64,000 nucleotides of DNA. It comes from Podarcis vaucheri. Taxonomy: Eukaryota. Below the pieces are notes generated by a model. The model was not told the origin of the DNA. It saw only the letters and a program-made list of their open reading frames with translations, and ran no database searches. The stretch's first letter is position 1; the number at the start of each line of letters is the position of its first letter. The position numbers and the translations under genes were made by a program. The stretch lies in the NCBI GenBank assembly GCA_965113315.1, contig OZ220364.1. One strand, given 5' to 3'. Shown piece by piece: positions 1,170 through 29,926 of the stretch.

Positions 1170-2168
1170 GAGTCAGTCAAAAGCCAAATGGCTGCTTGGT
1201 AGCTAGGAAGGACTGGATGGGACTGAGCAAGCTGAAACTTAATCCAGACAAAGCTGAAATGCTGTTGGCGGAAGAACCATCTGCCATAGGTTTGCGTTTA
1301 CACTCTCGAAAGGGGTTCTGCTGCCTCTGAAAGATCAGGTTCATAGCTTGGGGGATACTCCTTGGCCTGGCGCTCTTGTTAGGCATGCCAGTAGTGCTAG
1401 TAGTAAGGGGTGCCTTTTCCAAGCTTTGGCCAGTTTGCTGTGACCTTTCCTGACAATGTCAGACCTTGCTAGAGTCATTCATGCCCTAGTGACCTGCAAT
1501 ACACTTTCCATAGGGCTGCCCTTTGGGAACTGCAACTAGTGAAAAATGCTGCAGGTGGGATGTTGACAGGTGTTAGGCATTGAGTCTATTGCACCAGTTT
1601 TCTGTGACCTGCATTGGCTGCTGAGATGTTTCTGCACTTATTTCAAGGTGCTGCTGTTAGTCTTCAAAGCCCTCTGTCACTTGGGACCTGTTTCACTGAA
1701 GGTCAGCCTTCTTCCTCCTGCTCCAAGCACTCCGCAGCTCAGAGTATCCCAAACTTGGGTCTCTGGCTGTTTTTGGACTACAACTTCCATCATCCATAGC
1801 TAGCAGGACCAGTGGTCAGGGATAATGGGAACTGTAGTCCAAAAACAGCTGGAGACCCAAGTTTGGGATACCCTGCCCCAGCTCTGCACCCCTCACAGCT
1901 ATGAGGCCTACTTGGTTAGGGCCTTTTCTGTCCTTTCCCCATCCTGTAGAAAGCCTTTGCCAAGTGAGCTCCACCTTTAGATGGCTGGTGAAGACGTGTT
2001 TGTTTAAAAAAGCCTTTGGTTGAATATTTCCTCCTTAGGGTACAGTATTTGGATCTTTCCGTTCAGATGGCTGTTTTGTAATTATTATTGGGTTTTGGGT
2101 TTTCTGCTCATGTTTTATTGTGAATTGCTTTATATTTTGTGACTGTTGTTTCTGATTGTTAGCCACCT
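1170..2168 (+). mobile_element. Degenerate L2-clade LINE 3' part
   Basis: WMGLSKLKLNPDKAEMLL motif typical of the L2 RT C-terminus, followed by LHWL and FKVLLLVFKAL motifs and a T-rich 3' end. Confidence 0.8.
1740..1875. mobile_element. hAT-type MITE nested in the L2
   Basis: Long TIRs cagagtatcccaaacttgggtctc / gagacccaagtttgggataccctg. 8-bp TSD ccgcagct/ccccagct (7 of 8 match). Confidence 0.85.
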
Positions 2169-2169
2169 T

Positions 2170-2484
2170 AGAATCATAGAATCATAGAGTTGGAAGAGAC
2201 CACAAGGGCCATCGAGTCCAACCCCCTGCCAAGCAGGAAACACCTTCAGAGCACTCCTGACATATGGTTGTCAAGCCTCTGCTTAAAGACCTCCAAAGAA
2301 GGAGACTCCACCACACTCCTTGGCAGCAAATTCCACTGTCGAACAGCTCTTACTGTCAGGAAGTTCTTCCTAATGTTTAGGTGGAATCTTCTTTCTTGTA
2401 GTTTGGATCCATTGCTCCGTGTCCGCTTCTCTGGAGCAGCAGAAAACAACCTTTCTCCCTCCTCTATGTGACATCCTTTTATAT
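2170..2484 (-). mobile_element. CR1 LINE 3' fragment (copy A)
   Basis: Minus-strand ORF2 end [25 protein letters not shown]...FLTVRAVRQWNLLPRSVVESPSLEVFKQRLD, plus (ATTCTATG)n tail. Confidence 0.95.
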
Positions 2485-2600
2485 GTCCACAGGTTCAATT
2501 TCCAGGTAAAGGGATCTCAGGTAGCAGGTGATGGAAAAGACCTTCCTCTAGCCAGCGGTCCCAGAGAGTCACTGCCAGTCAAAGCAGACTGTACTATAGG
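2485..2600 (+). mobile_element. 5'-truncated tRNA-derived SINE fragment
   Basis: gtccacaggttcaattt resembles the B-box segment gtcccaggttcaatccc of the fuller SINE at 49640, followed by gagagtcactgccagtc body. Confidence 0.55.
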
Positions 2601-2769
2601 AATTCCCTTGGAAAAGCACACAAGATGTCATTGTTTATGGTGATGAAGCTGTACATGTGACAGAAAGGCACAAATGACCTCACGTTCCTAGGGTGTGTAC
2701 AGCGAAACAACAACAGCCATAACCTACACATGCAGTTGAGACTCGGTATTAACGTTTTAGTATTAACGT

Positions 2770-9988: not shown

Positions 9989-10082
9989 ATGACAGCCCTG
10001 CTGTGTGGCCTTCTCAGGTTCCTGGCAGTGGCAACAACATGTGCTTGGGCAGCTGCTTCTGCTGAAGGAATGATGGAACCAG
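9989..10082 (+). CDS. FGFR4: FGFR4 exon 2 coding part (signal peptide MTALLCGLLRFLAVATTCAWAAASAEGMMEP); exon starts at 9942
   Basis: Pyrimidine tract and ctag acceptor ending at 9941. ATG 9989 has A at -3. Hydrophobic signal peptide. Donor CCAG|gtgagc, phase 1. Confidence 0.88.
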
Positions 10083-10224
10083 GTGAGCAGAAAGATATGG
10101 GTGTGTTTGGGTGCAAGAGTCAGGGTGGCCATCTATTCAGGGGCTATGACTGTTTGGTGTTTATAGGACACTTTTCATTTTCTGAGGCTTGTATGGTCTT
10201 CTCCTGTGTTTGCCGTGACATGGG

Positions 10225-10256
<32 letters not shown>

Positions 10257-13200
10257 TCCATCCGTGGCAGAGATGGAAACCAGCCCTTCCACATCCAATA
10301 CACCATCTACACTGGCCTAAGCCATATTATACGTGTAGTGCCTCTATGTGTTGCAAGCCTGCTCTCCTCTAACCTGCTAGCCTTAACTTCTCTGTGTGAT
10401 CAACACGTCCACCCTATTCTGGTGTGGTGTGTGTAGGCAGCGGCATCAGCTTGGAATCAATCGGAATGGCTCACTGTGCTTTTGAGTTCCTAGCTTCTTC
10501 CTTCCCTCCACCCCTTCCTTGCATTTACACAGAGCGCAGGCAGCGGTGATGGCTGCAGAGTTGAAAGTACAGTTTGAAAGGCTGTCCTTGTGCTGGTGGA
10601 GGGGGCACAAAGAGCGCTCACATAGGTGTTTGCTTTGTGCTCCAGCGTATAAGAGATCCCAGCCTCAAACAGAGACTACTTGTACATTAAGGCACAATCT
10701 AAATACCAATTTCCTCCAGATTAGCCCAAATTCCCTGGGAACACTTTGTGCCAGGGAAGGGGAAGATTTTGCCATAGTAACCAGCCTGTGAGAGCAAGGT
10801 TTTGATAGGGCCTAATTTCCCCTTGGCTGCCCTGGGTGTCTCTGTCATGTGCTTTCCTGCTTTACAAAAGTTCTCCCTTGGGTCTAGTTTCATTTTCCCC
10901 CTCCTGATTGTCTAGTCCTTTATTCTGTTTATCAGTTTTAAGTAGGTAACCAGAAGACGGAACTAAGCGCAGCCGAACAGCTGTGTATGGATTTGTGTAT
11001 GATGGGAGTATAGTACAAATACGTTGTTAGACATATATAGCAGGGTTGATGTTGCTTGTACAAGTTGACTGATCTGGTGTTTTGTCAAAATAACTGCAGT
11101 TGTTCTGCTTGTGGAGCCCTTGCAAGGGAGCCAGACACACAATGCAGGCATTCCGCTTGTCAGATAAACCCTGTAATAAAGGCAACATTTGGAATTTGTG
11201 TAGTTTGGTTTTGTTATTTGGCCAATGTAGTCTGCGTTTTTTATGACTGGCCCCTTCCGAGTAATCAAATTTGCTAGGACTGCTGATCCTTCGGTCTAGC
11301 TTTGTACTTTCAGCATCCCCTGGCAGAGTGAGGGTAAAATGCCATGCCAGGGACTTGGCACCATCCCTCATGCCTGAGAAAAGGCGTTTATCCTGCTGTT
11401 GGCCCTGCCAGCAAACAGATGGGGATATTGTTATTTGTGCCTTGGTGCCCCTGCTCCTGCTGTCACCTTGAGCATTGTAATGCTCTACCATCACCTACCT
11501 GGCTACCTGGGGAGTGGGCTTAGGCTTATTGTAGCAGTTGGCATATAGGCTATTCTCTGTATTCTGTTTTAAGAGGGCACCATATAAACTCAAGAGAAAA
11601 AGGTGGGCGATGAAAAGTGGGGGTGTTGTTTTGAACAGGGGCTTCAAATGCCTATCCTATGCATTAGCACTTGAAATTCCTTGAAGTCAATTTGGCTGGG
11701 TGTTTTCCCCAGGTGTCAGTATTTGATTCTCTTAAGCGCTCTTCAGATATTACTCTGTGAAGGAAGGAAGCATTGTGAAAGTGGCTACAGGGTTGCATGT
11801 TTAGCCTCATCCCTAATGTTTTGTGGTTTCTCCTGCCATGCTGAGTCATAAGCTTCTGAAGTGGGGAGCCTGTTTGGTGTGCGAGGCTTCCCATGTGACC
11901 TAGAACCCCATGGTCCTAGGGCAGGCTCCCCCCACTTCTGATGTTTATCCCCAGGGATAGGAGGAGCTGTGTCACATAGGAGGCAGGGCTAAACATGCAA
12001 CCTTTAGAAGATACCTTTAGCGTATCTTCACCCTTTGTGCAAGTTATACCTGCGGAACTGGGAGGCTTCATATTTGTTCCTGGTTTTTCTCATGGGGGCA
12101 AGAGGCCCACCAAACTGTTTAGAAGGATGCAGACCCTTCAGTGAATTAAAGTGAGCTATTCTCAAGTGCGATTTTGACAAAAGGTAGAGAAAGGATGGTA
12201 TCCAACTGGTATCCAGCTGGAAATCTTTTCCAGATTTGTTCAGGATGCAAACTTTGTTGTTTGAACACTCTTCGCCCTCTGAAATGCCACTCTGGAAACA
12301 GCCTCTGCTTGCTCTATGGGTCTCTTAAAAGACTCCTAATCAAATGGGCTCTGTATCTATTTAAAGCTCTCCTAAAGGTGGGGGCTTGCTTCCCTTCCAA
12401 TCAGAATGGTTTTCTCGGTCTGAAGCCATATTCGTAGAAAACTCTTAAATTACCCTTGGCAATTACATTAAGTGCTTCGGTAGTAAAGAACAGCTGTGGG
12501 GAACATATCCCCCCCCCGTCTCTGCACAGGAGCATATTCTCAGGGTCAGTGATGAAGGCAAGCAAGCGAGATGTCCACTCCAGGTAGTAACATTCACAAG
12601 GTTGCATTAGTTGCTGATTCAAAGCCTTCCAGTCTTGGTTGTGCAAGAGTTTCCCTAAATTGCGAATAGATGTGTCTGGAGTCCCCGTACACACACCATT
12701 TTTTTCTTAGTAGTTTCCAAGTAGCATCTAACCCAGCTGCCATCTGAAGCTGCCCGGTATGGCTGTTCGTTTGTTTTAAAATGAAGAAGCCACAAGGTTC
12801 AGGGTGGAAAGAAGAACCTTTGCTGTCCAAGATTTGCAGGGTTACCTAGGCCTCTGATGCTGCTGGAGGGACAGTGATGGTGGATGTAAAGTAAGAAAGA
12901 GCCAGTTCTATGATAACAGCATTCTCACGGCTGTCTCTTCTGGTTGGCAGCATTTTCCTATCAGGGTACCCCACCCACCCACCTCCCACCCAGAGTTCTG
13001 TCCCAGAGCATCATGAAGGGAGGCCAGCATTCATCAGCTGGGAAGACCTAGCATCAGTCAAACTTGGGAGAACGGGTCTGGTTTGTGACTGAGCTGGTTC
13101 GAGGCATTGTGGGGAGGGGTGGGGAGAAGGGGGAGCTGGCAGGGCTCCCACGCAGCCCAGGCTAACTTTGGAGAAGGAGGATGGGTCACCAAAGCAATTA

Positions 13201-16200
13201 TAGTTCAAATCCAGGTTAGACAAACAGGGAGGTGGGAAGTTGTGGAGTCAGCTGAGTGTGAAACCTCTCACTCCCACTCATGCCATGGGGAGGGGGGGAG
13301 GGAAGGCCTTTTGTGTTGAGCATGGGAGAAGTGAGCAGGAGGAATGGAGCTAAATGAAAAGGGGAGAGGGGAAATGAGTCTCCTGTTGGCGAAGAGGGTG
13401 GAGGGGAGGCTGCTTATCTCATTCCCATCCTTCCGGCTCTCCCCCCCCCCACATGATCGTTCGCCCAATCCTGCAAAGGCAGAGCCCCGTCTGCTGAAAG
13501 GGGGACTGGCCCCTATTGTAAGTCGGGGCAGAGAGAGCACGGGAAAGGAGCAGTATGGCTGGGACAATGGTGATTGGGGGAGAGGGGCTCTGGGGGGAGG
13601 GGCAGCGGTCACGGGCTTCCTGACATGTTCATTTTGGAATCTGTCAAAACAGTCACTCTGGGCGCTGAGAGTGACCACTCAATCGAGGGCCCCCACAGAG
13701 AGAGAAGGGGCGGGGTGGGATGTGGTGCCGGGGGGGGGGGGGAGAGAGGGAGAGCTAAGCAGAGAAGTCATGCATCAGTGTCCGCCAGGATCCTTTCTCC
13801 TGTCCAGGACTGGCAGGAGAGGGGCTTTGATGACATCATTGCTCCACAGAACAGGAGGCGAAGGAGGGGGCGCTGGACAAAAGGGTTTGTGAGCTGGGCT
13901 CAGAGGATCCCCAGGAAGGTGGCAAGTGGGGGGGCTGGTGGCACGCATTGTGACTGCATTTTCCCTCAACCTGTAGTCCATACTTTTAGCGATTCCTACC
14001 TAGTCCTTAGAAATCCCGCTCATTCTTTCTCTGTCTCGGTCTTAAGCAGTCGCTCTCTGCCAACACCCTGTGAGCACCAGCCCCAAATATATCGCTTCCT
14101 CCGCCCAAATCAACATTTGTAGAATCTGCATACAGTCACTGGCTTTTGTGCACCTGGTATCCTATGTTCAACCAGTCACAAAATGTTTCTAGCACAAGCT
14201 AAAATCCCCCTAAAATTGGAGTATTTCCCCACAGAGTCAGTAGTTGTCAGGGATGAAACAGGAGAATCTTCCTCTGAGCCCCTGCCCCACTTCTAACATG
14301 GTTTTTGGTAAACTTGGTGTTCTAGAGTTATTTCAAAGGCTCCCGAATAAAATTGCAAGTTTTTCAGAAATCTTGAAGCCATGTGTATATTTTGGGGGAG
14401 GGAGAGTTGGATCTTTCTTTGGGAGGAACTGAAATTTGGGGGGAAATTGAAGGGTATGTGATACTTTAATATTGAGCCTAGCCATCAAGGATCAAGAGTG
14501 CAATCCAGTACACACTTACCTGGGAGTAAATCCCATTGAACTCATTGGGACTTACTTCTGAGTAGACATGAATAGGACTGTGATGTAAGGATGTAAAATA
14601 TATTGTATATACCTTGCTATGTAAAATACTGCTGTTTGGTAAATATATGAAATGCCTTGGCAATAATAGTATTTTCTATAGGTTACAGCTCTCATTGGCA
14701 GTTGTTGCAACCAAGTACAGTATATCTTTTTGTCAGTTGGGAAAATAGGAAAAGTTGTTAATGGATGACATCAACATTTGAGCAAATGAAAAATAGATTT
14801 TATTATCTGGACTTTTGAACAATATTATCATGCAGAATATCATGCATGCTATCATGCAGAAACAGAACTAACTCATATTTCCAGAGATCACAAACACCCG
14901 TAACATGAAGTTTGAGGACTAGCAATATATTTGGACAGACACATTCTGCAATTTCCAGAATACTGAAGAAGTTAATGTTATTTCATTATCATACACAATT
15001 GTTTGCATATTTACCTGGGAGTAAGTCCTTTTGAACTTGCTTGTGACTGAATAAATATGTACAGGGCTGTGTTAAAAGAGTCATAGTCACTGTAGATAAA
15101 AAGTTGTCCTTATTTATTAGTTTCCATCCCACTTCATAACATATCATTGATGACAACTTAACTTCACCTCTCTAAGCAGAATCAATGTCTGAAAGATCCA
15201 TAGTTTCTTATTCTGACCTTATTTCGAGTGTCATATTCAGAAAACAGAAAAATTGCAGGAATTGAAGCAAAAAGCTCAAAACAGTTTTGCTGCTAGTTCT
15301 GTGTGTATGTCCGCATACAAGCAGCAGTTTATTTCCCAATGTAGAAGATACAGAAATCTGAAGCAGGAAACGTCAGATACTTAGTTGTGCAAATGCCTCG
15401 CCACCATGTTGCAGAAGCAATGGGCTCCGTAGGTTCCCAGATTGCCCTCCCGCATTAAATACCTGATCACGTTCTGTTTTGTGAAGCATTTGAGAGTTTG
15501 AACTTACAGTGTTGCTTCTTTAGTAATTCAGTTGAAAGTGGCACCACTCCTTTAGAATCTTGGATCTAATAATTTTGCCTGTGTAACGATTTTAAAACAC
15601 AAGTTTGAGAAGTGTTTCACTTTTCATGTTGAAGGTGAAAATATTCCGCATAGAGCTCCCCTGCCCAAATCACTAATATTTCTAGTTGAGGCCAGGGGTT
15701 GAGGCAAAGTCCAGTTTCCCCTCCTCCCCTTACTCCAGACCTTCCCATTTCTGCTCCAGAGCAAGCTGCTTTCCTGTTGATCAGGTCTGCTCAGTGCACA
15801 GACACTCCCAAATTGGATCAGCTTCCAAGTGCTAGCCCACTATGGGAACATTGAAGATCCGCCTGTAAGGGGCTCGACCTACTTGTGTTCTGAGAACAAG
15901 TGAGACAGCAAAAGTTATGGGCATACTGGCAACTCTCTGTTTCCACGGGGAGGGGTGTGTGTGTGTTGAATTCCTGGTGCCTGCGTACATCAACAGAGCG
16001 AGCATAAGCCTGCCCCACCCTGTTGTGTCCCATTGCACCCCATTTCCAGGCCACTTCCGGGTCTGCCGCAATGAGTGTGCGCACAGTCACACATCAATCG
16101 GATGCACGTAAAATGGTTGATGCCTTGTATATGCAGAGTACTTCCCTCTCCCAAATGAAGAAACCAATCCTGTTCCATGTGGGAAAGGTCGATGAAGCTT

Positions 16201-16572
16201 CCAGGTTAGAGGATGGAGAATTCAGGCAGCCTTGAGCTCTGGCATTTGCCCTTTGGGTGCCCTTGGGGTGGCACAGTTGGTGGCTGGTTTTTCTTGTGCA
16301 CAGGACAACCAGAAGCCTGTGAGACCCAACTCATTCAACCATCTCCCAGAGGGTCACTCTCCTCATGCTCCAACACTTTCAAGCAAGCCTTCTGGTGGTC
16401 CAGCGAGGAAATGGGGGTTATATGTTGGTGTCTTCTAGCATCTGCCTGGGGTAAAGGGAGTCCCTACTTATCCCATATTCCAGAGCATTTGAGTTACGGG
16501 TGTTAAACACGCGCTGTTTCTAAAGTGAGCTCACACTGTCATTTGCACTGACCCTCTTCTTGCGTTGGACAG

Positions 16573-16839
16573 AGATGCTTGACAGCCACATGGTGGAGAC
16601 GGAGGAGGAGCACCTGCTACTGGACCCTGGGAGTCTGCTGAAGCTCTACTGCAGCACCAACCACAGCCTTGCGATCATATGGTATAAGGAAGCCAAGCAG
16701 CTTTTCCCAAGCGGGCGCATCCACATGCGGCAGAGCATGCTGGAGATTGTGGAAGCCACCTATGAAGATTCAGGCCTGTACTCCTGCCGAGCGCAGAGCA
16801 CCGGGGAAAGCCTGCGCAACTTCACCATCTCTGTTGTGG
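16573..16839 (+). CDS. FGFR4: FGFR4 exon 3 (Ig-like domain I)
   Basis: EMLDSH...LKLYC...WYKE...EDSGLYSC...RNFTISVV. cag acceptor, G|gtaaga donor, phase 1-1. Confidence 0.95.
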
Positions 16840-18246
16840 GTAAGAGATGTTCCAGCCTCTCTTCAGAACGGTGGCAACCCCTCCTTTTTTTTTGTTTGAG
16901 GGAAGGCCGCATGGCACATGTTTGCTCAGTAATGTTTCTGCTCCTCAGGGCAAACACTTCTCCTAGTCCAATGTGGAATGGAAAAATGAGAAGCGGTGTC
17001 ACTGGAAGAAGGTCTTAAGAGCTGAGGAAACAGCTCTATGACATTCTTGCCATGTCAGCCCCCCAGGGGGAGAAGAGGTCCCTTTTTAAGAGTAAGAAGG
17101 GGACGGAAATGTTAGGCACACCCAGAAACAACCCAAACAGCTAGCAAAGACTAGTGCATAAGAGAAGTAAGCAGCAAACAGAGGTGGGTTTTAAAAAATA
17201 AGATAAAAAGGGCAAAAAGTCTTAGGGGACCACTTGGAAACATTTCTGAGGCTTGACATGACCCACAACTCACAGGTCAGCCACCCTTGGTTCATAGTGA
17301 CTGGCAGTGGGTCTCCAGAGTCCTTCCTCACCTAACTTGGAGATGCCAGAGAACCAGGGACCGTTGGCATGCAAAGCATCTGCTCTGCTACAGCTCCTAG
17401 TCAACACAGACCTTGCCACACTGCCGCCTTGCATGTCCCCTGGTCAAAGCAACAAGGATTTATTTAACTTGGCGCTCCTCCTAAAGGACTTGGTTTTCAC
17501 AATGAAACTAGGCGGTTCCCTGGAACAGCTGGTAGATCTCAGATTACACCCCTTCTGTGAAGGTTGCGCGAGCTGCTTAATCACTTCCGGGCCTGTTCAA
17601 GGTTTTGTCTTCAACATGTAAAGCCCCAAATGACTTTGGTTTAAAAAAACAAAACAAAAACAAACCCCGATAGATTGCCTCCTCCTTTATACTCTGCCCT
17701 GGGATTTAAGATCAGCAGGAGAGGCCCCACTGGTGGTCTGCTGACACCCTCAGAGGTCCAGGGGACAGTGTCACATGAGAAGGCCTTTTTTGTGGTGGCC
17801 CCCAAACTTCAAAACTCTCTGCCTCCTGATGTATTCCTGATATCAACACTGGAGTTTTGTGCAGGCTTTTGGAAATGTGCAGTGTGATTACTTTCTGTAT
17901 ATGCTTTTATTGTTTGGTGGCTGCTTTAATTGATTGCATTTTACTGTTTCGTATTGCATTGTCCACCTGCCCAGGGACCTTTGGTGAAGGACAGGTAATT
18001 AAATGTACTAAATAAAGAATAAGCCAACAAATGAGCTAGGACTGTAGCAGCCAACAGTGCTTCTCCTCCTCTCCCCCCAGTCACCTTTGAACATACTCCA
18101 GTTAGCATTTTGCCTGCTACTCTACACTCCTGCTAAGAAAATGCTGGTCCACTGTAGCCAGGTGCTCCCTTGATAACTGCCTCTTGTTCAGTGCCCTGTG
18201 GTTATTTAAGAAGCAAGACCACAAAGAATTACCATTTTGTTTTCAG

Positions 18247-18336
18247 ATTCATTGGCATCTGGTGATGACGATGAAGACAGCGGTGTGGAGAGTGCCCACG
18301 CCGATTCCCTTGAGGAGCCCATACATACCCGGCGAG
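18247..18336 (+). CDS. FGFR4: FGFR4 exon 4 (acid box)
   Basis: DSLASGDDDEDSGVES... tttcag acceptor, G|gtcagt donor. Confidence 0.95.
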
Positions 18337-18764
18337 GTCAGTATGCCTACTTGGCTGTGCTTCACTCCGTCCTGGGTGCTGATGCATGCTGGGAGAGGGA
18401 ACTGGGTGGAGAAGGGGTGCTTAGTAAGTACTTGGACTCACGGTGGCCAGACATCTACCTTTCTTACTTCCCAAGCCTCCTCTGCTGTCGATGTGTCCCA
18501 AAATTGTTTGATAATGGTTGCCTTCAAACTAGGGAGCTCTGCTTGAGCTTGGAGCATATCCCAAAGCACACTCATTTCTCATGGGACGTTGAGGTTCCCC
18601 AGTGGAAGGGTTGCCGTCGTGCATTTTGGCACATCCATGGGTCCCTATGATGTTCCCTTTAACTCTCCCACCATCAGTTAGAGCACAGACCTTTGTCCCT
18701 AAAGTGTGAGCCTCCCCTGAGCCTGAATTAAAAGCTGGAGCCAATAGGGTGATGCCTTTTTCAG

Positions 18765-18931
18765 CACCTTACTGGACGCACCCTCACCGAATGGACAAGA
18801 AGCTGTATGCAGTCCCGGCAGGGAACACAGTCAAGTTCCGCTGCCCAGCCTCTGGGAGCCCCAACCCAACAATCCGCTGGCTGAAGAATGGGAGGGAATT
18901 CCGAGGGGAGCACCGGATTGGAGGGATCAGG
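18765..18931 (+). CDS. FGFR4: FGFR4 exon 5 (Ig-II, first half)
   Basis: [56 protein letters not shown]. Donor AGG|gtaagt. Confidence 0.98.
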
Positions 18932-19051
18932 GTAAGTGCCCAGCCCCTTACAGGTTTGCCATCTCTCCCCTTGCCCTCCTTTCCCTTTTCCTCCACCTGG
19001 CTGGGACCGCAGCTGCCTTGCCCACCAGGTTTTTATGAGTTAGGATTTGGG

Positions 19052-19085
<34 letters not shown>

Positions 19086-19479
19086 GGGGGGGGCACAGGG
19101 GAGCATGCTTTAAGGAATCCACAATATTGCACAAGCCACTCAGCAGTGAGTTTGGGGAATTCAGCCTGCTGTCCAAAGACTCCAGGACCCTCTTCAGCAC
19201 TTGCTGTGCCCCTGATCCCCTTTTGCTCTGGCTGCCCTAGCCTTGCCAGATCAATATATTAATTTGCAAAAGTTTGCTTCCATCAAAAGAGCAGCTGCTA
19301 GACATTTCCACCTCTTTTGCCCGCCTTTCTCCTCTTTCTGCTCCCTAGCTTGATTCAGTGCATTGTTAAAAAAGGTCAGCCTATGGACGTGCCCCATTCC
19401 TTAACAATGGAGCATGAACACATAATGCAAACACCATTGTTAAAATAGCTACACTGGCTACCCATTTGCTACTGAGCCA

Positions 19480-19780
19480 GGTTCAAGGTTGATTGGTATT
19501 AATCTACAAAGCCCTGAAGAACGTACGTCCAGTGCACCTTAGGGGCTGCTGAAACCCTTATATGTCAGCACAATCACTGAGATAACCTACAGGAGTTTTG
19601 TTAGTTGTTCCTTGCACTGGCAAGGCTCATTTGACACCAACATGAAATACAGCCTTTAGTGTCATCAGCCCAGGCCTGTGGAGTGTTCTGCCAATAGATT
19701 CAGCAGGCAGCTTCTGCCTCAGCCTTTAAACACCTGTGGGAAACTTCTATTCTGCCATGATTATACAGGCAATTCAGAAT
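19480..19780 (+). mobile_element. Old L2 fragment in intron 5
   Basis: ccaggttcaaggtt...aatctacaaagccctga (FKV...IYKAL) and gcctttagtgtc...ctgtgg motifs, similar to the L2 at 1170-2168. Confidence 0.55.
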
Positions 19781-19781
19781 A

Positions 19782-20005
19782 CAGTCGTACCTTAGAAGTC
19801 AAACGGAATCAGTTCCAAAAGTCCGTTTGACTTCCAAAATGTCCAGAAACCAAAGCGCAGCTTCTGATTGGCTGCAGGAAGTTCCTGCAGCCAATCAGAA
19901 GCCCTGTCAGACATTTGGGTTCCAAAGAACGTTCACAAACCGGAACACTCATTTGGGAGCCAAAACATCCAAGTACCAAGGCATTCAGAATCCAAGGTAT
20001 GACTA
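19782..20005. mobile_element. Tc1/mariner (Tigger-like) MITE
   Basis: TIRs cagtcgtacctt / aaggtatgacta flanked by TA. Internal palindrome ctgattggctgcaggaa..ttcctgcagccaatcag. Confidence 0.85.
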
Positions 20006-20219
20006 TACATCTTTTCACAACAGTTAGCTGATGGTCTCTGTTTTTTAAATTGTTACATGTTTTTTAATATATAGATACTAAACAGCTTTGATATGTGATA
20101 CACCAGTATATAAATATTTTTGTAAATGAAGAAATATTTGCCGGCCTTAGTATATAGCTCAAAGGATTTGTGTCTAAAACAAGGGACTTTTGTTGGCCTG
20201 TGAGCAGCTGTGCCCTGAG

Positions 20220-20309
20220 CTTAGCTGTCAACTTTTCCCTTTTCTTGCGAGGAATCCTATACGGAATAAGGGAATTTCCCTTTAAAAAAGGGAAACGTTG
20301 ACAGCTATG
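20220..20309. mobile_element. 90-bp hAT-type MITE, 75 nt upstream of exon 6
   Basis: TIRs cttagctgtcaac / gttgacagctatg. Perfect 8-bp TSD GCCCTGAG. Confidence 0.88.
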
Positions 20310-20384
20310 GCCCTGAGAGAGATGGACATCTCTTTTAAAAGAAGGCGATAACCTTGGCTCCTGCCTTTTCCTCTTTCCACCCAG

Positions 20385-20508
20385 CTAAGGCATCAACACT
20401 GGAGCTTGGTCATGGAGAGTGTGGTGCCTTCGGACCGAGGCAACTACACTTGCCTGGTGGAGAACAAGTTTGGCAGCATCCGCTACAGCTACTTCCTGGA
20501 TGTGCTAG
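20385..20508 (+). CDS. FGFR4: FGFR4 exon 6 (Ig-II, second half)
   Basis: [41 protein letters not shown], read directly from sequence (absent from the ORF track). ccag acceptor, G|gtgagg donor. Confidence 0.98.
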
Positions 20509-21304
20509 GTGAGGTGAACTTCTCCCTGCCATACTGCTCCAAATCTAGATATGTGGACATCAACATGTGAAAAAAAGACAAGGAAAGTGGGCTGCCCCCC
20601 CCACTCCCCCACCTCCAGCCTGAAAAGCTCCTTACTCCTTTGCCGATGAGTGCTTTTGAGTCTGTGTGGGATGCCAGACCCCAGTTCCCTGGCAGCCTGC
20701 CAGGTTCCTGTGGGAAGGAACAAGCCTCGCCACCCTGACCTCAGGCACCCCCAAAGAGAAGGAAAATGCCCCGAACCCGCTTTTGACTTCAAAGGGAGTT
20801 GGAGATCTCCCAGGCCATAAAGTCAGATGAAATTAATTAGCCCTGCCTAGATCTATAGGACTAGCTCTAAGCCTTTTGCTCCCTTATCTCTCAGCCCCTC
20901 ATTATCTGTCTTCTCTGGGCTTACTTGTAATCACCGGAAAGAGGCTCTGGAGCCAGTCATGGGTGGGAGTTCAGCCCATGGCATTAAGTAATATCAGATC
21001 TGCTGGGCTGGAAGGAGATGGCGGGCAGTGGGGGGTGGGGGGGGAGAGAGACACCAGGCCTTTAGGCAGGACTGCATATACTGCTGTACTAGGGAGCTTT
21101 GAGAAGAAAGTGCTGCGCTTTGATAGATGGAGTAACTCCCTGACAGTTGGCTGCGCCTCTGCACTCCCGGACGGCTGCGATAGCACTATCAGCTCCGTGT
21201 GCAGTGATTTATGTGCTGTAGAGCATGACCTTAGCTCCTCTGGGGGGGACCTGGCAGTCTTCAACTGTGCTGGACAACAACTTTCCCTGCTCTCTTCCTG
21301 GCAG

Positions 21305-21495
21305 AGAGATCTCCGCACAGGCCTATCTTGCAAGCTGGGCTGCCGGCCAACACCACCGCAGTGGTGGGCAGCGACGTTGAGTTCTTCTGCAAGGTGTACA
21401 GCGACGCCCAGCCCCACATACAGTGGCTCAAGCACATTGAAGTGAATGGCAGCAGCTACGGCCCAGATGGAGTCCCCTATGTGCAAGTGCTTAAG
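21305..21495 (+). CDS. FGFR4: FGFR4 exon 7 (linker and Ig-IIIa)
   Basis: [64 protein letters not shown]. Donor AAG|gtaacc. Confidence 0.98.
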
Positions 21496-21883
21496 GTAAC
21501 CAGAGCTCCCCCTTTTTTTGCAGAGATTTCCATTGCCAGAAAGGTCACTTTCCCCCACACTTTTAGACAAACAACAGAGGTTACGGAGTGGGGGGAGCAG
21601 GGGCTGGATAGGAAGTGGCACATTTCAGTGGGCTAGATTTAGACCAGGGGCTCCTAGTTGCTGACCCCTCATCTGTGGAGCCAAGGGCACATATAGCCCA
21701 TTACCCATATTAAGAATTGCACATTTTACAATATGTGCCTAAACTAACAGTTTCAAACCAAAAGTTTATCTTAAAAGAAGGCTTTAACAAGAGTGATTGC
21801 TGTGTTTATTTGCAAAGAAAGAGAGGAGGTCCAAGACTGGCTGAGATGCTACTTTCAATAGCGCCAACTCTGTAAGCTTGGAG

Positions 21884-22080
21884 CATAGCTTTCCAAACCT
21901 TTCATGCTAGTGACACACTTTTTAGACATGCATCATTATGTGACAAAGTAATTCAGTTTTACTAACAAACCAGAAGTTAAACTAACCCCTTTCCAGCCCC
22001 AGAAGGAGCATGGGGAGTGTTAGCACATCACACCTACACACTGCAGTCGAGTGTCATGACACACAGTTTGGAAAGCTGTG
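21884..22080. mobile_element. hAT-type MITE in intron 7
   Basis: TIRs catagctttccaaac / gtttggaaagctgtg. TSD gcttggag/gcttagag. Confidence 0.85.
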
Positions 22081-22462
22081 GCTTAGAGTATATGTCCAGA
22101 AAACAAGCAAACGCAAAGAGCTGCATCATCAGTCTAGCACTGTCCCAGTTGGGTTGCTTATTCTCACAGCAGAGTTGTTGTGTCTCAAGCCCAGAGGCTT
22201 CATACATGATTTTCTGTAGAAGAGTTGCTTGGAAGTAATAAAACTTAGCAATGGCTGTGGTGCACTTATTTAGGGCATCCTCATCAGAGATTGGGGTACA
22301 TGACCATCAATCAGCCATTTATAAGATAAAGATGCACCCTTGAAAGATATATTGGCAGCAAGCAAGATGTTCCCCTTCCAATAAGAAGCTTGAATAACCT
22401 TTTTGTGTCAACGAGAACTAATGCTTTTCTCCCGGCCTCCCACTGGCGACTTATTTTGGCAG

Positions 22463-22601
22463 ACGGCAGATATTAACAGCTCGGAGGTGGAAGTGCTGTA
22501 CCTGCGCAATGTCTCCATGGAAGATGCTGGGGAATATACCTGCCTAGCAGGGAATTCCATTGGCCTGTCATACCAGTCAGCTTGGCTCACTGTGCTTCCA
22601 G
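22463..22601 (+). CDS. FGFR4: FGFR4 exon 8 (Ig-IIIc)
   Basis: [46 protein letters not shown]. Donor G|gtgaga. Confidence 0.98.
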
Positions 22602-23767
22602 GTGAGAAAGGACGGTGGATGAGTGGATGGGGGAAAAGATGGATAATGGTAGTAGGGTATTCCTTTGCAGAGCTAGAAGCAGAGATTACCTTTCCTAATA
22701 GAGACGCTGGGGGTGGGGTGGGACTATACTGTGCATGTCGTACCCCTGTAGAATATCCAATGAGATGAATATGGTAAAGAGAGAGACAGACAGACAGATA
22801 AATGGCTGAAAACAAATTGCAAGACACACTGCCTCGCTTGCATTAAGTTGCCAATCAATCAGTCAACATGACAGATCTATTCACTGTAGAATTATACAGA
22901 ACAATCTACTGTTGTCTTTTGTCAATATATCAATCACAATATGACAGCTGCAGTCCATCAAAAGAGATGCTGCACTTCTCAGTGTATAAATCCTGGAAAG
23001 ACAGACTGGATTTTGGACCCACTTTGTACAAGGAAGAATCCAGCCACTTTTAAATCCCTTGATTTGAATGGAGAATTAGGACAGGCAGGTGAAAAATCAG
23101 ACAGGGCCCTTGCAGCTTGAATAGTTGTGTAGAGCAACACTCCTGCATAGCTATTAAGGATGCAGGTAATATAAATGGGTGGAGACTAGGTGGTTTTTTA
23201 ATATCCACAAATTAGACATAATCCACTGATTAAAAACAAAAAGGCCTACGTACATCTTAAGGGGTGGGGTGGGGAATTGGTAATGAAATGAATTCTGCCT
23301 AGGCTTTGAATGGATAGATTTTGAAAACAGCACATTGTACTGTATATGTAATTAAATGTGGAAGAGATACTGCATGAAATTCCAGGAGCTAGGAAATTTC
23401 TGTTTAGCAAAAACTCTAGGTTTTCACTGAAAGGCATCTGCCTTAAAATGGCTATGTGATGGCTCAATGATAGCTCAAGGATGGGAGCATGATCTAGCCA
23501 GAGTTATCTTTTTACGCCCCATTTATGACAGTCAAAGTGATCTAAACATACGGTATGTTAGGCTCTCTCATTGAAATCAGTGGGATGTATTTTGTTTATG
23601 GTACTGATAGGCTCTGCAGCCAGGTACAGACAGGCTGTTTTTGCAGGCCAATGTACACACCGTGCAGCACAGCCATGTTCCCTCCAGCCCAGCTGGCTAC
23701 CTGCTGTGGTCAAAGCAGGTTTAACCCCCCTGAAACATGCTAACTGCAGATTTATTTGCTATTGCAG

Positions 23768-23961
23768 AAGAAGAAGAAGTGCAAGAGGCAAATGCCCCTG
23801 AAATCAAGTATACCGATATAATTATCTACACTTCGGGATCTTTGGCCATCGCAATGGCTATTGTCATTGTTGTCTTGTGCCGGATGCAGACCCAGCCGAG
23901 CAAGCAGCCCTTGGAGCCCATGGCCGTACACAAACTCTCCAAATTCCCGCTCATTCGGCAG
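23768..23961 (+). CDS. FGFR4: FGFR4 exon 9 (transmembrane helix and juxtamembrane)
   Basis: EEEEVQEANAPEIKYTDIIIYTSGSLAIAMAIVIVVLCRMQ...VHKLSKFPLIRQ. Donor CAG|gtaggt. Confidence 0.97.
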
Positions 23962-24403
23962 GTAGGTACCGAGAGACCCAGAACTAACCTTAAAGTGGGT
24001 CAGAAGGATCCATTGTACCACTGCAGTGGTTTTCAAGGGCCCACAATGTTGTCTGCCTGCTTGGACCAAGAATCAGCAATGGATAAAGTGAGATACTCAG
24101 ATCCTCAGAGTACAACAAATTATTCAGGGTAGTAAAATCCCAGTCGGACCATGCAGATCTCTGAAAACAGCTCTCCCATGTTCAGCTAAATTCACCCTTC
24201 CCTGTTCACTGTCAGGGCAGCATCTGGTTGGCTAGATGGACCTTGTTCGCATTGTTGATGGCTCTTATTGGTGTTAGGTGTGTGTGTTCTGCCCTGTCCC
24301 TTGTTTCACTGTGTCCTTTGTGCCCTTGTCCAGTCCGTTCTTGCGCTGGAGTAAAGCAGTGTCTATGGGGCAATCTGCTTGAATGTTGGGTCTGTCTCCA
24401 CAG

Positions 24404-24713
24404 AATCATAGAATCATAGAGTTGGAAGAGACCACAAGGGCCATCGAGTCCAACCCCCTGCCAAGCGCATCAGAGCACTCCTGACATATGGTTGTCAAGC
24501 CTCTGCTTAAAGACCTCCAAAGTAGGAGACTCCACCACACTCCTTGGCAGGCAGCAAATTCCACTGTCCAACAGCTCTTACTGTCAGGAAGTTCTTCCTA
24601 ATGTTTAGGTGGAATCTTCTTTCTTGTAGTTTGGATCCATTGCTCCGTGTCCGCTTCTCTGGAGCAGCAGAAAACAACCTTTCTCCCTCCTCTATGTGAC
24701 ATCCTTTTATATG
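24404..24713 (-). mobile_element. CR1 LINE 3' fragment (copy B) inserted at the exon-10 splice acceptor
   Basis: Same CR1 ORF2 end and tail as 2170-2484. Flanked by direct repeat TCCACAG (24397-24403 and 24714-24720). Confidence 0.95.
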
Positions 24714-24720
24714 TCCACAG

Positions 24721-24866
24721 TTCTCCTTGGAATCCAGCTCCTCGGGGAAGTCCACCACATCCCTGATGCGTGTCACCCGCCTCTCCTCAAGCTGCACACC
24801 CATGCTGGCCGGGGTCATGGAAGTGGAGCTGCCTCTGGACTCCAAGTGGGAATTCCCACGAGACAG
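24721..24866 (+). CDS. FGFR4: FGFR4 exon 10 (juxtamembrane)
   Basis: [48 protein letters not shown]. Acceptor gtccacag abuts a CR1 insertion. Donor AG|gtaagt. Confidence 0.97.
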
Positions 24867-26076
24867 GTAAGTCTTGTGAGGTGCAACGTAGCTTCCTTCT
24901 GCATGTGCCGCTGAGGATGCTGGCCAGGCTCTCGCATGACTCACACAAGCCCAGTGTCAGAATGGCAAAGCTTCGCCTGCTCACCAAACTTGTATCAAGA
25001 TGTGTGTTTGTTAACACAAAGGGCTAGTTCCCACATGTGGTCCAGCTGCCAGATTGTCAGTGTCCTTAGACCCATGCTTGCCTGTGTTCACGCAGAGGAA
25101 GCAGCTGGTAAGCTGGAAGTTCACGTGTGCCTGGCTGCACAGGACTCTTGTTCCCACCAGCACAGTGGCTCCAAAAATGGCATCACAGCCATCACATACC
25201 ACCTGGTACGCATGTGCTTCAGTTTCACATGTTATTTCCCCCTCACAAGCGAGGGCAAGCACAGCAAGTAGAGTGGCCAAGTACCACAAAGAGGGAAGGC
25301 AGTAGAGTGCATGAGAGTACCGCTTTCTTCAAAGAACAAAACTGGAGAGGAGTCCATTGTAACCCTGCTTAGCTCTGTGACTAAGGGGCTAGCTATAAAA
25401 ATTGTCCGGTATCAAAAGCCGTGCAGTTTGTCTCTTGAATTGCTGCCTGTAGAACAAAGGTGGGGAACCTCAAACTGAGGGGCCAGGTGTGTGTGTACGT
25501 CAGCTATTATACAATGGCAAAATTTACATCCATTGCCTCACTCACTTTTGCACACACATAATTTGATTGTATGCTGCCTTTCCATAGTTCAAACCATGCT
25601 CAAGGCGGCTTACAACACGGAACAAAATACATAACTACAACACAACAAAAGTAGTCATAAACAATAAATTAAACAATAAAAAACTCAAAACCAAACTGAA
25701 CAATTTCCACATAAAACACAACAAAATCTAAAATAAAATACAAAAAACTAATGGCAACAACCATCCTCCCAAACAATACTCCAGGCCAAGAGTCTGTTCA
25801 GCAGCCTGAGCTTTTGTAGCTGGAGTCAGTCCGGGCCCCACCTTCCCAGGTCAGGTGGAAAGGGCAGACAGAGCAGGGAGCAGGTCTTCCAGAACTCAAG
25901 ACAAGATGGACTGTCTCTGGCATATGGCCCTCAGAAGAATGCCTAGAAGGGAATGCTGCCCTTGTGCTGGAAAAGGTTTCCCACTCCAGCTGCTACAGTC
26001 TCTTGGAAATGAACTTGTTAGTGAATTCTTGGAAATGAAAGGAATTTGTTAGTCAATGCACTGTATAGACATTGAT

Positions 26077-26336
26077 GAGCCAGTGTGGTGTAGTGGTTAA
26101 GAGCGGTAGTCACGTAATCTGGGTAACCGGGTTCGCGTCTCGGCTCCTCCACATGCAGCTGCTGGGTGACCTTGGGCCAGTCACACTTCTTTGAAGTCTC
26201 TCAGCCCCACTCACCTCACAGAGTGTTTGTTGTGGGGGAGGAAGGGAAAGGAGAATGTTAGCCGCTTTGAGACTCCTGAAGGGGAGTGAAAGGCGGGATA
26301 TCAAATCCAAACTCTTCTTCTTCTTCTTCTTCTTCT
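26077..26336 (+). mobile_element. Squam3-like (MIR/CORE-related) SINE with (CTT)n tail
   Basis: tRNA-like head gagccagtgtggtgtagtggttaagagc...gggttcg, CORE-like gctgggtgaccttgggccagtcac, (CTT)n tail, possible TSD tgatga. Confidence 0.85.
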
Positions 26337-26617
26337 GATGAACGCCCACCAATGATGCTTGTACGTATCGCCTCACCTCCCAACTTGGGATAGTTCATGC
26401 ATGGGCCTGGGAGAGAACATTGGGTCAGATTTCTATGTTGAGGTTGAGGCCCTGCAGATGCACCTGGTGCTAACCTCTGATTCTGCCCCACTGCAGGGGA
26501 CCTGCCAGCTTTCGGATACAGCCCTGAGTTTAGGTCCCACCCACCCAAATGCATCTGTACCCATGACGACATGAGGTTGTCCTTTTAAGGAGGCTTTGTA
26601 CCCTTCTTTTTCCCCAG

Positions 26618-26739
26618 GCTTGTGCTGGGCAAGCCACTGGGTGAGGGCTGCTTTGGGCAAGTGGTGAGAGCAGAAGCCTACGGCATTGATCAAGAACGGC
26701 CAGAGCGACCCATCACTGTGGCTGTCAAGATGCTCAAAG
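26618..26739 (+). CDS. FGFR4: FGFR4 exon 11 (kinase Gly-rich loop, VAVK)
   Basis: [40 protein letters not shown]. Confidence 0.98.
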
Positions 26740-26861
26740 GTAACCACAATATACAGGGCTAAGAGAGCCTGAATTGTGGAAGGACTTCAGTCCTTCCACT
26801 GTTGGATTCTAGTTTAGATCATGGGACACCCCAGTCTGACCTCCTTCTGTTGCCTTGCCAG

Positions 26862-26972
26862 ATAATGCCACTGACAAAGACTTGGCTGACCTCATCTCAG
26901 AAATGGAAATGATGAAACTGATGGACCAACACAAGAATATAATCAACCTGTTAGGAGTCTGTACGCAGGATG
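26862..26972 (+). CDS. FGFR4: FGFR4 exon 12 (alphaC helix)
   Basis: [37 protein letters not shown]. Confidence 0.98.
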
Positions 26973-27200
26973 GTAAGTGACTGCCTCTTTGGGCTGGGAA
27001 GCAGAGGGTACCAGGTGCTGTGAGGAAAGAGGCAGGGATGTTTGGGAGGTCAGGAGAGACCAGAAACTTCGTGGGGCCATTAGGAAGATGCTGCAACTGA
27101 ACAATGGAGCTCTGATGTTCCAGGATAGGAGCAGACATTGTACGGGATTTATGAAGACTGCACCTGAGAGCACAGGCTCACATATAACTCCTGACTGCAG

Positions 27201-27391
27201 GGCCTCTCTATGTGATTGTGGAGTTTGCTGCCAAGGGGAACTTGCGGGAGTACCTGCGCGCCCGTCGCCCTCCCACGCCAGACTACACCTTTGATATCAC
27301 CAAGATGCCTGAGGAGCAGCTGTCCTTCAAAGACTTGGTCTCCTGTGTCTACCAGGTGGCACGTGGCATGGAGTACCTGGAGTCCAAGCGG
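27201..27391 (+). CDS. FGFR4: FGFR4 exon 13 (hinge and kinase insert)
   Basis: [64 protein letters not shown]. Confidence 0.98.
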
Positions 27392-27811
27392 GTAAGAGCA
27401 GCCTGGCCCAAATGGCTTTGCCCCCTCACCAACCCTAGCAGGATCCTTACTTAAGCAGAAATGACTGGTGGCCAATGGGCAAGTGTCATCTGAAGCGTTG
27501 GCAGGTTCTGTTGGAGTGCCAACAGTGAAGGCTCTAAGCCAAGCATTGGCACGCTAAAGCTTTTGCTGGGCTCTTGACTAGCCCGCGAGGGCAGCTACAT
27601 GAGGGTTAGGTCTACCAAAGGAGAGGGGCCGTATGTACCAGGCCTGGGCAGCCATCATGTGATGAAGGAGTGAATGGCAAGGCAGAGAGGCAGCGAAGCT
27701 ACTCCTGACTCTCATGGTAGATGCAGCAACAACCCACTAGCCCAGATGTGTCTTCCATTGGACTGCAGTCTGGGCTGCAGTGGGCTCTCCGGATCCTCAA
27801 GAGAGGATTCA

Positions 27812-27813
<2 letters not shown>

Positions 27814-27862
<49 letters not shown>
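27814..27862 (+). repeat. (TC)~24 microsatellite forming the exon-14 polypyrimidine tract
   Basis: Uninterrupted TC repeat running directly into gcag|TGC. Confidence 0.95.
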
Positions 27863-27865
<3 letters not shown>

Positions 27866-27866
27866 G

Positions 27867-27989
27867 TGCATTCACCGGGACCTGGCTGCTCGCAACGTCC
27901 TTGTCACCGAAGAAAACGTCATGAAAATTGCAGATTTTGGCTTGGCCCGGGGAGTTCATGACATTGACTACTACAAGAAAACCAGCAAT
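27867..27989 (+). CDS. FGFR4: FGFR4 exon 14 (HRD, DFG, activation loop)
   Basis: [41 protein letters not shown]. Confidence 0.99.
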
Positions 27990-28448
27990 GTGAGTGAGAT
28001 GGTATTTGAGAGGCACGGGAGGGGAAGACTCAGAATTGTCAACAGGCTTTGGAAATACGCAATGCAGTTGGGGGAAAAAGGAGCGTGGGCACTGGGGGAG
28101 AGCAATTACTGTGCTCTGTATTTCTTAACAATAAATGGTTAACAATGCATGGAAGGCAACTTGGGAGGGTAGCTACCCTGACAGATGGCATATCAACCTT
28201 TTAAATAATAATGTAGTATAAAGTAGTAGAGAAACCTTCATAGCCCTTTGTGTGTGCATACACACGTTCCTGCATTACCCTGTTGGTAAAGAGAGATAAT
28301 TTTATTACTGTTTACTTTCAAGGAATCCAGGGTCTTGTAGGAAACTAGGATGAGCACATCTATGGGGGTGGATATGTGGCTATTGCTCAGTGGATGCTAG
28401 AGGGTAGAACTCAAAAGAGGAGACATTGCCCAGGGAAAGTGTCAATGA

Positions 28449-28550
<102 letters not shown>

Positions 28551-28695
28551 TAAGTTTGACTCTGCAAGGCTCTCACAATCACATCAGCCTACACAGCTAT
28601 ATCTGGCAGAGCAGCTGAGCTACTGTGTTTTTAAAAGGGAGAAGTTGCCTTATACTAAAGCAGAGCATTGATCCATCTTGCTCAGTACTGCCTAC

Positions 28696-28832
28696 CAGTG
28701 TTGCTCTAACTTGGGTCCCTGACTGTTGTTGGACCACAAGTCCCATCATCCCTAATTAGCAGGAGCATTAGTCAGGGATGATGGAGGTTGTACTCTTAAC
28801 AATATCTGGAGACCCACATTTGAGAAACACTG
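28696..28832. mobile_element. hAT MITE (family of 1740-1875) nested in an antisense SINE
   Basis: Ends cagtgttgctctaacttgggtcc / gagacccacatttgagaaacactg. Internal cccatcatccct...cagggatgatgg. Confidence 0.75.
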
Positions 28833-29229
28833 ACATACACTAGCTCTCTGGGGTCTTTCCTACTTTTATTTAAAGATGCAAAGAATTGAACTTGGGGTGT
28901 TTTGCATGCAAGCTACAGCCCTTTCCCAACCATCCTGGCTGTATGGAGAATAAATGGGCCTATTTGTCAGTCCTACTAGATGAACCATAAGTGGCATGGA
29001 AAAGCCAGGATGCAATGTCCCTTCCTGCCTGCATAAAGATGACAAGAAGCATAGAGTTGCTTGCTCCCTGTAAAGTGGTCCACCTTTGTAACTGGTCTCC
29101 AGCATATGTAACTTCAATACATTCCACCTCTGTGGTCACAAATCCATCTTTGTGAGATTTTGCTGAAGTAGTGCACATTCCACGGGGGCAAGGTCCACCT
29201 TCTGATGCTTGGTGGTAGTGTAGGGCTAA

Positions 29230-29445
<216 letters not shown>

Positions 29446-29533
29446 TAAGTGTGTGTGCCTCTTAACCACAGCACCTGCATCCATATTATGGGATGCTCTA
29501 GCCTGAGATGTCCCCTCCCCTTTCCCCAAACAG

Positions 29534-29639
29534 GTACATGATGATGCGCGAGTGCTGGCACGCTGTGCCTTCCCAGCGGCCCACCTTCAAGCAGCTGGTA
29601 GAGGGACTGGATAAGGTCTTGGTTGCTGTCTCTGAAGAG
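29534..29639 (+). CDS. FGFR4: FGFR4 exon 17
   Basis: [35 protein letters not shown], preceded by an 89-nt intron. Confidence 0.98.
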
Positions 29640-29779
29640 GTAGGTTCAGACCACCAGGAAGAGGCATGAACGCAGCTGTTTCAGAAACCCTTTTAAGTTC
29701 CCTGAAGCAGAAGTAGAGGGAGCCAAGCCTTTGTCCCTTGTGAATGCTGACTGGGTGTCCTTTCTCTCTTTCCCTTCAG

Positions 29780-29926
29780 TATCTGGACCTGTCAATGCCC
29801 TTTGAACAGTATTCTCCATCCTGCGAGGACACGACCAGCACCTGCTCCTCTGACGACTCTGTCTTCACCCATGACCCTCTGCCCATCACCCCCTGCCTCT
29901 TCCCCTACCACAATGTGCGGACATGA
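29780..29926 (+). CDS. FGFR4: FGFR4 exon 18 coding part (C-tail with YLDL PLC-gamma docking motif, stop TGA)
   Basis: [48 protein letters not shown]. Confidence 0.97.

Follow-up and report, generated by a model that had tools for sequence, protein, structure and literature searches.

The window, by which we mean the whole stretch of 64,000 nucleotides (64 kb) that was analysed, contains the FGFR4 gene on the plus strand, exon 9 of which matches named FGFR4 proteins with an identity of up to 95%. If exon 10 is entered through the downstream one of two AGs, a model of 17 coding exons is obtained (9989-29926, +; the first coding exon was taken as exon 2 for the numbering), which encodes 806 amino acids with no internal stops and is 92–93% identical to five squamate FGFR4 proteins. 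The 15 internal exons measure between 71 and 267 nt, and the protein sequence of exon 10 is shared without change by 11 named squamate proteins out of 12, the remaining one being a model that diverges near its end. A retrotransposon fragment in antisense orientation lies between exons 9 and 10, and the region is composed as follows:

23768..23961 (+): FGFR4 exon 9, the transmembrane exon, 194 nt, ending in phase 0 at CAG/GTAGGT (donor GTAGGT at 23962)
24380..24403 (+): former 3' end of intron 9, now orphaned, with a candidate branch A at 24382, a pyrimidine tract and the AG at 24402-24403
24397..24403 (+): upstream TCCACAG, the likely target site, which resembles the CR1 tail octamer that comes next
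24404..24712 (-): 5'-truncated LINE assigned to CR1, antisense to FGFR4, with a C-terminal remnant of ORF2, a short 3' UTR and an octamer tail (24402-24419)
24404..24484 (+): tail of 26 amino acids predicted for splicing at the upstream AG, ended by TGA (24482-24484); this stop comes into frame through the loss of a net 8 nt around 24466-24469
24675..24712 (+): pyrimidine tract contributed by CR1, with the A at 24699 as branch-point candidate, preceding exon 10 and of putative function
24713..24720 (+): GTCCACAG, non-CR1, containing the downstream acceptor AG (24719-24720), which is needed for full-length FGFR4
24721..24866 (+): FGFR4 exon 10, 146 nt, donor CAG/GTAAGT

Exon 9 begins with an AAG/GAAG run (23768-23782) that places tandem in-frame AGs just past its acceptor. 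In addition, its frame stays open into intron 9 for 57 codons (23962-24132), so that plain intron retention would lead to a kinase-less frame too; the intron-9 read-through tails of relatives are unrelated to this reading.

The minus strand of the insert reads as the C-terminus of a LINE ORF2, and the alignment stops at the ORF2 stop of its relatives; the remnant has its stop at 24470-24472, and its frame is broken by a 4-nt duplication (24546-24549). A second copy of the insert, its twin at 2172-2492, has an unbroken ORF2 reading that found 9456 representatives at E<=0.001. The RVT_1 domain was present in three of the six longer relatives tested, and Pfam returned no matches for the insert fragment itself. 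Both copies in the window end in a tail of ATTCTRTG-type octamers, and the 3' end of amniote CR1 elements has been described as a hairpin with an octamer repeat of the consensus ATTCTRTG (PMC8665684). The same 3' hairpin stem is predicted in both copies, with z-scores of -1.68 and -0.31 that are not significant. We assign the insert to the CR1 LINEs as a 3' fragment, a label that is based on ORF2 homology and on the tail, no match itself being named CR1.

The closest named relatives of the insert are two predicted proteins of Podarcis lilfordi, P0345 and P0134. P0345 is identical to the insert from IKG onward and continues further upstream as MFKY, which the window copies do not; because of this continuation the insert is considered 5'-truncated and the adjoining GTCCACAG non-CR1, a CR1 origin of this 8-mer being ruled out at the truncation point. 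The match to P0134 begins further downstream than that to P0345, and the subfamily appears to be a young lacertid CR1 with variable 5' ends, the youth of the element being suggested by its near identity to the Podarcis subfamily; on these matches a lacertid is the probable host. According to a survey of squamate genomes, 97% of squamate CR1s are truncated, and lacertid genomes contain 17,000-25,000 truncated CR1 copies of more than 500 bp, with 65-260 overlapping annotated exons (PMC11303007). The direct repeat flanking the FGFR4 copy is 7 nt long, whereas the target duplications reported for CR1/L2 elements peak at 3-5 bp (PMC4245944).

Older and more diverged CR1 tails of the same type are found at 3225, 5225, 5324, 6621-6764 (-) and 51255-51317 (-), all of them unlike the young pair. 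Among the database entries, a reptile-type CR1 ORF2 fragment (P0287) has been deposited as a hypothetical protein of Salmonella sp. on a 613-nt contig, which is likely host contamination.

The 7-mer TCCACAG stands at 24397-24403 and at 24714-24720, i.e. with a spacing of 317 nt. It occurs 18 times on the two strands of the 64 kb window, and its repetition at the exon 10 boundary is more than chance at this place. The repeat may be a plain target-site duplication; its origin is ambiguous because the same 7-mer is also found in the twin at 2172-2492, whose terminal GTCCACAG is identical but has no counterpart upstream. The first-pass annotation had described the AG at 24403 as an orphan upstream acceptor, and in this respect its coordinates, the extension of exon 10 by 317 nt and the translation were all correct, positions 24404-24484 reading NHRIIELEETTRAIESNPLPSASEHS, i.e. 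26 amino acids, and then TGA (24482-24484). It had also called the two acceptors identical, which holds for the 7 nt TCCACAG but not for the pyrimidine tracts and branch-point candidates. The upstream acceptor comprises a complete ancestral branch point, tract and AG with a 43-nt AG-free zone, and the downstream branch candidate, 22 nt upstream of exon 10, is imperfect. An intact reading frame results solely from the downstream AG; the upstream AG leads to a product of 448 amino acids.

Exon 9/10 junction readings were compared among the 120 exon-9 matches listed (of 239). RQ/FSL or an equivalent was found in 97 of these 120, different residues precede the exon 10 start in five, and the pattern was unmatched in 18. 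One of the five is a QQ variant, and the remaining four are read-throughs of the intron 9 end, which finish in LGISPQ (P0045, P0055), LCLSPQ (P0046, a Mimus model) and STVALQ (P0062). In the window, the in-frame context before FSLDS is MLGLSPQ at the upstream acceptor and HPFICPQ at the downstream one, and since the former agrees with three of the four read-through relatives among the matches listed, we take the upstream AG to be the ancestral acceptor of exon 10. Pyrimidine tracts favour L, S and P, and one of 16 FGFR4 acceptors independently ends in SPQ, which is a caveat on the SPQ match; LG-x-SPQ, however, is more specific than such a tract-driven bias.

The twin, which the first-pass annotation had overlooked, is situated about 22 kb upstream of the FGFR4 copy and adjoins two other repeats:

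2110..2175 (+): repeat end, presumably LINE-tail-like, adjoining the twin and cut where it is CR1-tail-like; aligned to 48946-49010 without a shuffle control
2172..2492 (-): twin of the insert, 321 nt, with the same tail end, 5' truncation point and terminal GTCCACAG
2485..2589 (+): headless SINE-like fragment adjoining the twin, whose B-box region aligns via GTCC(A)CAG to 49684-49772

The score of the SINE-like fragment's alignment through GTCC(A)CAGGTTCAAT was reached in none of 1000 shuffles. Two of three flank motifs of this SINE are absent from the Squam3 supplements and its head differs, and the text of the PMC10702118 supplements yielded no matches. That the repeats on either side of the twin are incomplete, the LINE-tail-like one being cut and the SINE-like one headless (2110-2589), suggests that target DNA was lost at insertion; the twin also lies about 6 kb upstream of a GC-rich region at 8-10 kb. 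No duplication flanks the twin past chance 4-5-mers.

Beyond the element, twin and FGFR4 copy share 2 nt on the left (AG) and 0 nt on the right. They differ by two indel events and three substitutions. If a single outgroup protein (P0134) is used for polarity, the private changes of the FGFR4 copy are a net deletion of 8 nt, a duplication of 4 nt and two of the substitutions, and that of the twin is the third substitution; the difference of 4 vs 1 changes is not significant (p = 0.375). As independent insertions would not share the truncation point together with the non-CR1 8-mer GTCCACAG, we regard the two copies as dependent insertions with a common source.

On balance, the FGFR4 copy would have been the template for the twin. 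CR1 would have primed at the FGFR4 acceptor, the CACAG of which resembles its tail octamer, and 7 nt (TCCACAG) would have been duplicated there as target site. The far end of the twin would then have annealed via GTCCACAG to the B-box region of a SINE, with loss of target DNA. If FGFR4 was the parent in this way, the 7-mer is the target duplication of FGFR4 that was carried into the daughter. The copying may have taken place through RNA or through DNA repair, both routes being possible.

The reverse history is a tentative and less probable alternative, in which the 2172-2492 copy or a third locus came first and GTCCACAG was acquired from the SINE adjoining it. The FGFR4 copy would then be a daughter, and its 7-nt repeat would represent a microhomology joint. 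Indeed, the twin's GTCCACAG aligns at 7/8 positions to the SINE sequence before the B box and runs into the SINE, and annealing joints are described as the main 5' pathway of CR1/L2-like inserts (PMC4245944), which would suit either history. The twin is also nearer to the subfamily, with one private change against four, although this count depends on one outgroup protein and, as stated, does not reach significance. However, an extra A in the twin's SINE copy would be required, as would an exact 7-nt match, at the CR1 boundary, to an independently conserved acceptor, and the twin's own 5' joint would be left without microhomology. In addition, the junction reading was present in 0 of 264 CR1-match proteins, which is a weak test but gives no sign of a wider family with a fixed CR1-GTCCACAG end. 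The outcome for splicing would be the same under the reverse history.

Other repeats were noted in the window. An element at 1740-1875, of which three diverged relatives occur (28722, 46030 and 54943), has inverted arms of 56 nt with 88% complementarity; we take it to be a non-autonomous DNA transposon. Open frames at 2753-3135 (+) and 58075-58608 (-) presumably represent an RTE/Bov-B LINE C-terminus and a coiled-coil LINE ORF1, respectively. In intron 10, the head of a SINE at 26078-26336 matches Squam3 alignments (supplement of PMC7983390), and this SINE ends in a (CTT)n tail, as described for Squam3B.

The strength of the two acceptors was scored with a crude matrix derived from the other 15 FGFR4 acceptors. 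The upstream site scored 6.2 and the downstream site 7.1, true sites ranging from -0.1 to 14.7; among 1311 other intronic AGs, 58 reach the upstream score (4 of them in intron 9) and 41 the downstream one. This crude score neither singles out nor excludes the upstream acceptor. Three unused intron-9 AGs (the base after the AG being 24216, 24334 and 24551) outscore both TCCACAG acceptors, the last one lying inside the insert, at the 4-nt duplication.

As to exon context, use of the upstream AG would create an exon of 463 nt and use of the downstream AG one of 146 nt. Exons longer than about 300 nt are poorly defined, and in classic duplicated-acceptor experiments the exon sequence adjoining a duplicated acceptor reportedly decides the choice. 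Since 146 nt, and not 463 nt, is within the 71-267 nt of the internal exons, the context favours the downstream acceptor. Transcripts from the NF1 insertions reported never contained a complete Alu or L1 insert, and the explanation preferred by the authors is that inserts of 300-2000 nt weaken exon definition (PMC3219598). Low-level use of such sites is reported to be common and mostly cleared, with nuclear decay implicated (bioRxiv 10.1101/2025.07.16.665169), so that unresponsiveness to NMD blockade alone would not exclude use of the upstream site.

We estimate the probability at about 70% that we are dealing with a tolerated insertion, in which CR1 took over the exon 10 acceptor and any use of the upstream site yields a predicted NMD message but no decoy. 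Exon 10 would be spliced mostly at the downstream AG, with CR1 supplying the pyrimidine tract; this site would win because the 146-nt exon keeps its own exon sequence and donor while the upstream site makes a 463-nt exon, and the upstream leak would be small and unregulated. The element has persisted long enough for the FGFR4 copy to accumulate four private changes. If the insertion is young or polymorphic, the intact reading frame is a weak indication of efficient splicing.

Substantial use of the upstream site is possible, given that the ancestral signal seems complete and the downstream branch candidate imperfect. The locus could then be a natural hypomorph, with the ancestral acceptor competitive, more than 10-20% of transcripts taking the +317-nt form and being degraded, and the FGFR4 dose lowered constitutively or by tissue. 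The upstream site has been tested by evolution and scores near the downstream one (6.2 vs 7.1), a precedent exists in dog merle, where an antisense element inserted at an exon boundary has led to two acceptors being used to graded extents, and loss of Fgfr4 is tolerated in mice. We nevertheless consider the hypomorph unlikely, as the upstream exon would be 463 nt long, the inserts in NF1 were never fully included in the cases described (PMC3219598) and a tract of variable length as in merle is absent, no oligo(dT) or tandem array being found at the FGFR4 insert.

Two further splicing candidates were tried. An alternative donor 4 nt past exon 9 would restore the frame length, but a stop follows after three codons and the donor scores 1.9 vs 10.1; this in-frame rescue was rejected. 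A cassette poison exon within the insert was not favoured, the best donors there scoring 4.6 and 4.0, below all 16 true donors (5.5-12.1). At 24522-24527, the GT of AAA/GTAGGA results from a substitution private to the FGFR4 copy and, together with the upstream AG, would delimit a 118-nt cassette that carries a stop (donor 4.0).

More far-reaching, and in our view quite improbable as a whole, would be the following: the exon 10 3' splice site of FGFR4 has been captured by a young CR1 and depends on a branch point and tract made by the transposon, through the ancestral acceptor a share of the transcripts, measurable and varying with tissue, is lost to decay, so that the locus constitutes a dosage allele, and the fragment copied itself with an acceptor tag 22 kb upstream.

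As to the fate of the upstream-spliced message, the first-pass annotation had predicted either a poison isoform or a kinase-less FGFR4. A message is usually marked for NMD if its stop precedes a junction by more than 50-55 nt. The first of these predictions follows from the anatomy, as the stop is located 382 nt before the next junction, with eight junctions downstream, and it is a prediction likewise here. Aberrant FGFR4 transcripts have been reported as NMD substrates in human liver cancer cells (PMC12828087). The 317 nt are out of frame and contain stops in all three frames. The first 21 residues of the tail equal the plus-strand reading of the twin, which is in frame (321 nt) and reads 99 residues to a single stop; the early stop in the FGFR4 tail is thus due to the private net 8-nt deletion. 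Between them, the two indels of the FGFR4 copy changed a nearly open, in-frame insert into an out-of-frame insert with an early stop, but two indel events cannot demonstrate selection.

The second prediction, a stable, membrane-anchored and kinase-less FGFR4 of 448 amino acids that dampens FGF signalling as a decoy, is very improbable. The predicted product would keep the ectodomain and the transmembrane exon and would fall 30 residues short of the kinase motifs, which start at residue 479 in the full form, and truncated FGFRs are known to act as dominant negatives. However, its message is a predicted NMD target with eight junctions beyond the stop, its tail is antisense CR1 3' UTR, and its stop arose incidentally from a private deletion. 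A scan for 12 poly(A) hexamers found none of them in 24404-24866. The canonical AATAAA occurs before exon 11 only at 25663, 25675 and 25732, beyond the exon 10 donor, where in theory it could terminate the message within intron 10; these hexamers, however, sit in the A-rich tail of an antisense repeat, and escape from NMD by this route would need the 463-nt exon and, in addition, a bypass of the exon 10 donor, the score of which (12.5) is above that of the other donor flanking the region. The 26-aa tail was found in none of 164 exon-9 homologue matches listed (120 of 239 and 44 of 44), a weak test, since clustering at 90% could hide an isoform and none of the matches is from Podarcis vaucheri; the exon-9 protein searches gave no match at 100% identity among those listed. 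The annotation had further proposed that competition between the acceptors tunes FGFR4 dosage, but tuning would imply regulation or selection, and the element is young and lineage-specific.

The A-rich antisense repeat tail in intron 10 (25590-25760), with three AATAAA and one ATTAAA, is a possible intronic poly(A) site in its own right and could truncate FGFR4 before the kinase independently of CR1.

As two repeats of 320 nt, nearly identical and with the same ends, are found at a distance of 22 kb, one copy might be imagined to have been misplaced during assembly. This is hardly credible, as two indel events and three substitutions separate the copies, the window contains zero N and the junctions of each copy are typical of LINE insertions.

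If the upstream leak is negligible, which is most likely, the locus is an ordinary tolerated insertion. It presents a natural competition in cis, in which an acceptor with a conservation reaching from birds to lizards has been parted from its exon and replaced by one supplied by a transposon; the relative weight of exon context on the one hand and of the native branch point and tract on the other could thus be judged in a reptile. In the event of a large leak or a polymorphic insertion, a regenerating lizard would provide a ready allele for FGFR4 dosage. In addition, the twin pair is a rare tagged parent-daughter case that could show if truncated intronic CR1 copies act as sources.

None of the papers listed by our searches concerns this FGFR4/CR1 locus, the one listed paper that mentions FGFR4 being without CR1, and several known systems can be compared with it. 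Regulated poison exons (AS-NMD) share with the FGFR4 insert an alternative splicing event that leads to an NMD-triggering premature stop, which is predicted here. Such exons are, however, typically conserved and regulated, whereas the FGFR4 element is young and lineage-specific; the position of the stop is the only feature in common. Kinase-less FGF receptors, i.e. engineered dominant negatives and FGFRL1, resemble the predicted 448-aa product in having an ectodomain and a transmembrane helix but no kinase; they come from stable messages, in contrast to the 448-aa form, which is a predicted NMD target. With the squamate CR1 LINEs in general (PMC11303007) the FGFR4 copy shares the 5' truncation, and it differs from them as described in lying directly against a coding exon and in being matched by a local twin with the same non-CR1 end.

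The closest known cases are the Alu insertions at acceptors of NF1 and merle in dogs (PMEL). In NF1 (PMC3219598), retrotransposition likewise occurred into an acceptor AG or pyrimidine tract and placed an insert of several hundred nt beside an exon, but the reported insertions lead to exon skipping or cryptic sites and to disease, while the element in FGFR4 seems to offer a replacement tract beside a duplicated AG and the reading frame is intact. In merle, an antisense SINEC_Cf is located at the boundary of PMEL intron 10 and exon 11, and a use of 25-100% has been proposed for the aberrant acceptor (PMC7349775, PMC6091007). Both loci have an antisense retrotransposon at an intron-exon boundary with a flanking duplication that contains the acceptor, in both the element supplies a pyrimidine tract, and in both the aberrant acceptor would add element sequence to the exon; two acceptors compete in PMEL, and competition in FGFR4 is predicted from sequence. 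The merle insert adds 52 amino acids in frame in a transcript that has been observed, whereas the predicted FGFR4 form is out of frame and carries a stop. The merle element is a SINE flanked by a 15-bp duplication, and its unstable oligo(dT) tunes acceptor use; the element in FGFR4 is a fragment of a CR1 LINE, flanked by a 7-nt repeat and lacking a poly(A)-derived tract. Finally, the alternative AG lies inside the SINE in merle, whereas in FGFR4 it would be the intact ancestral AG itself.
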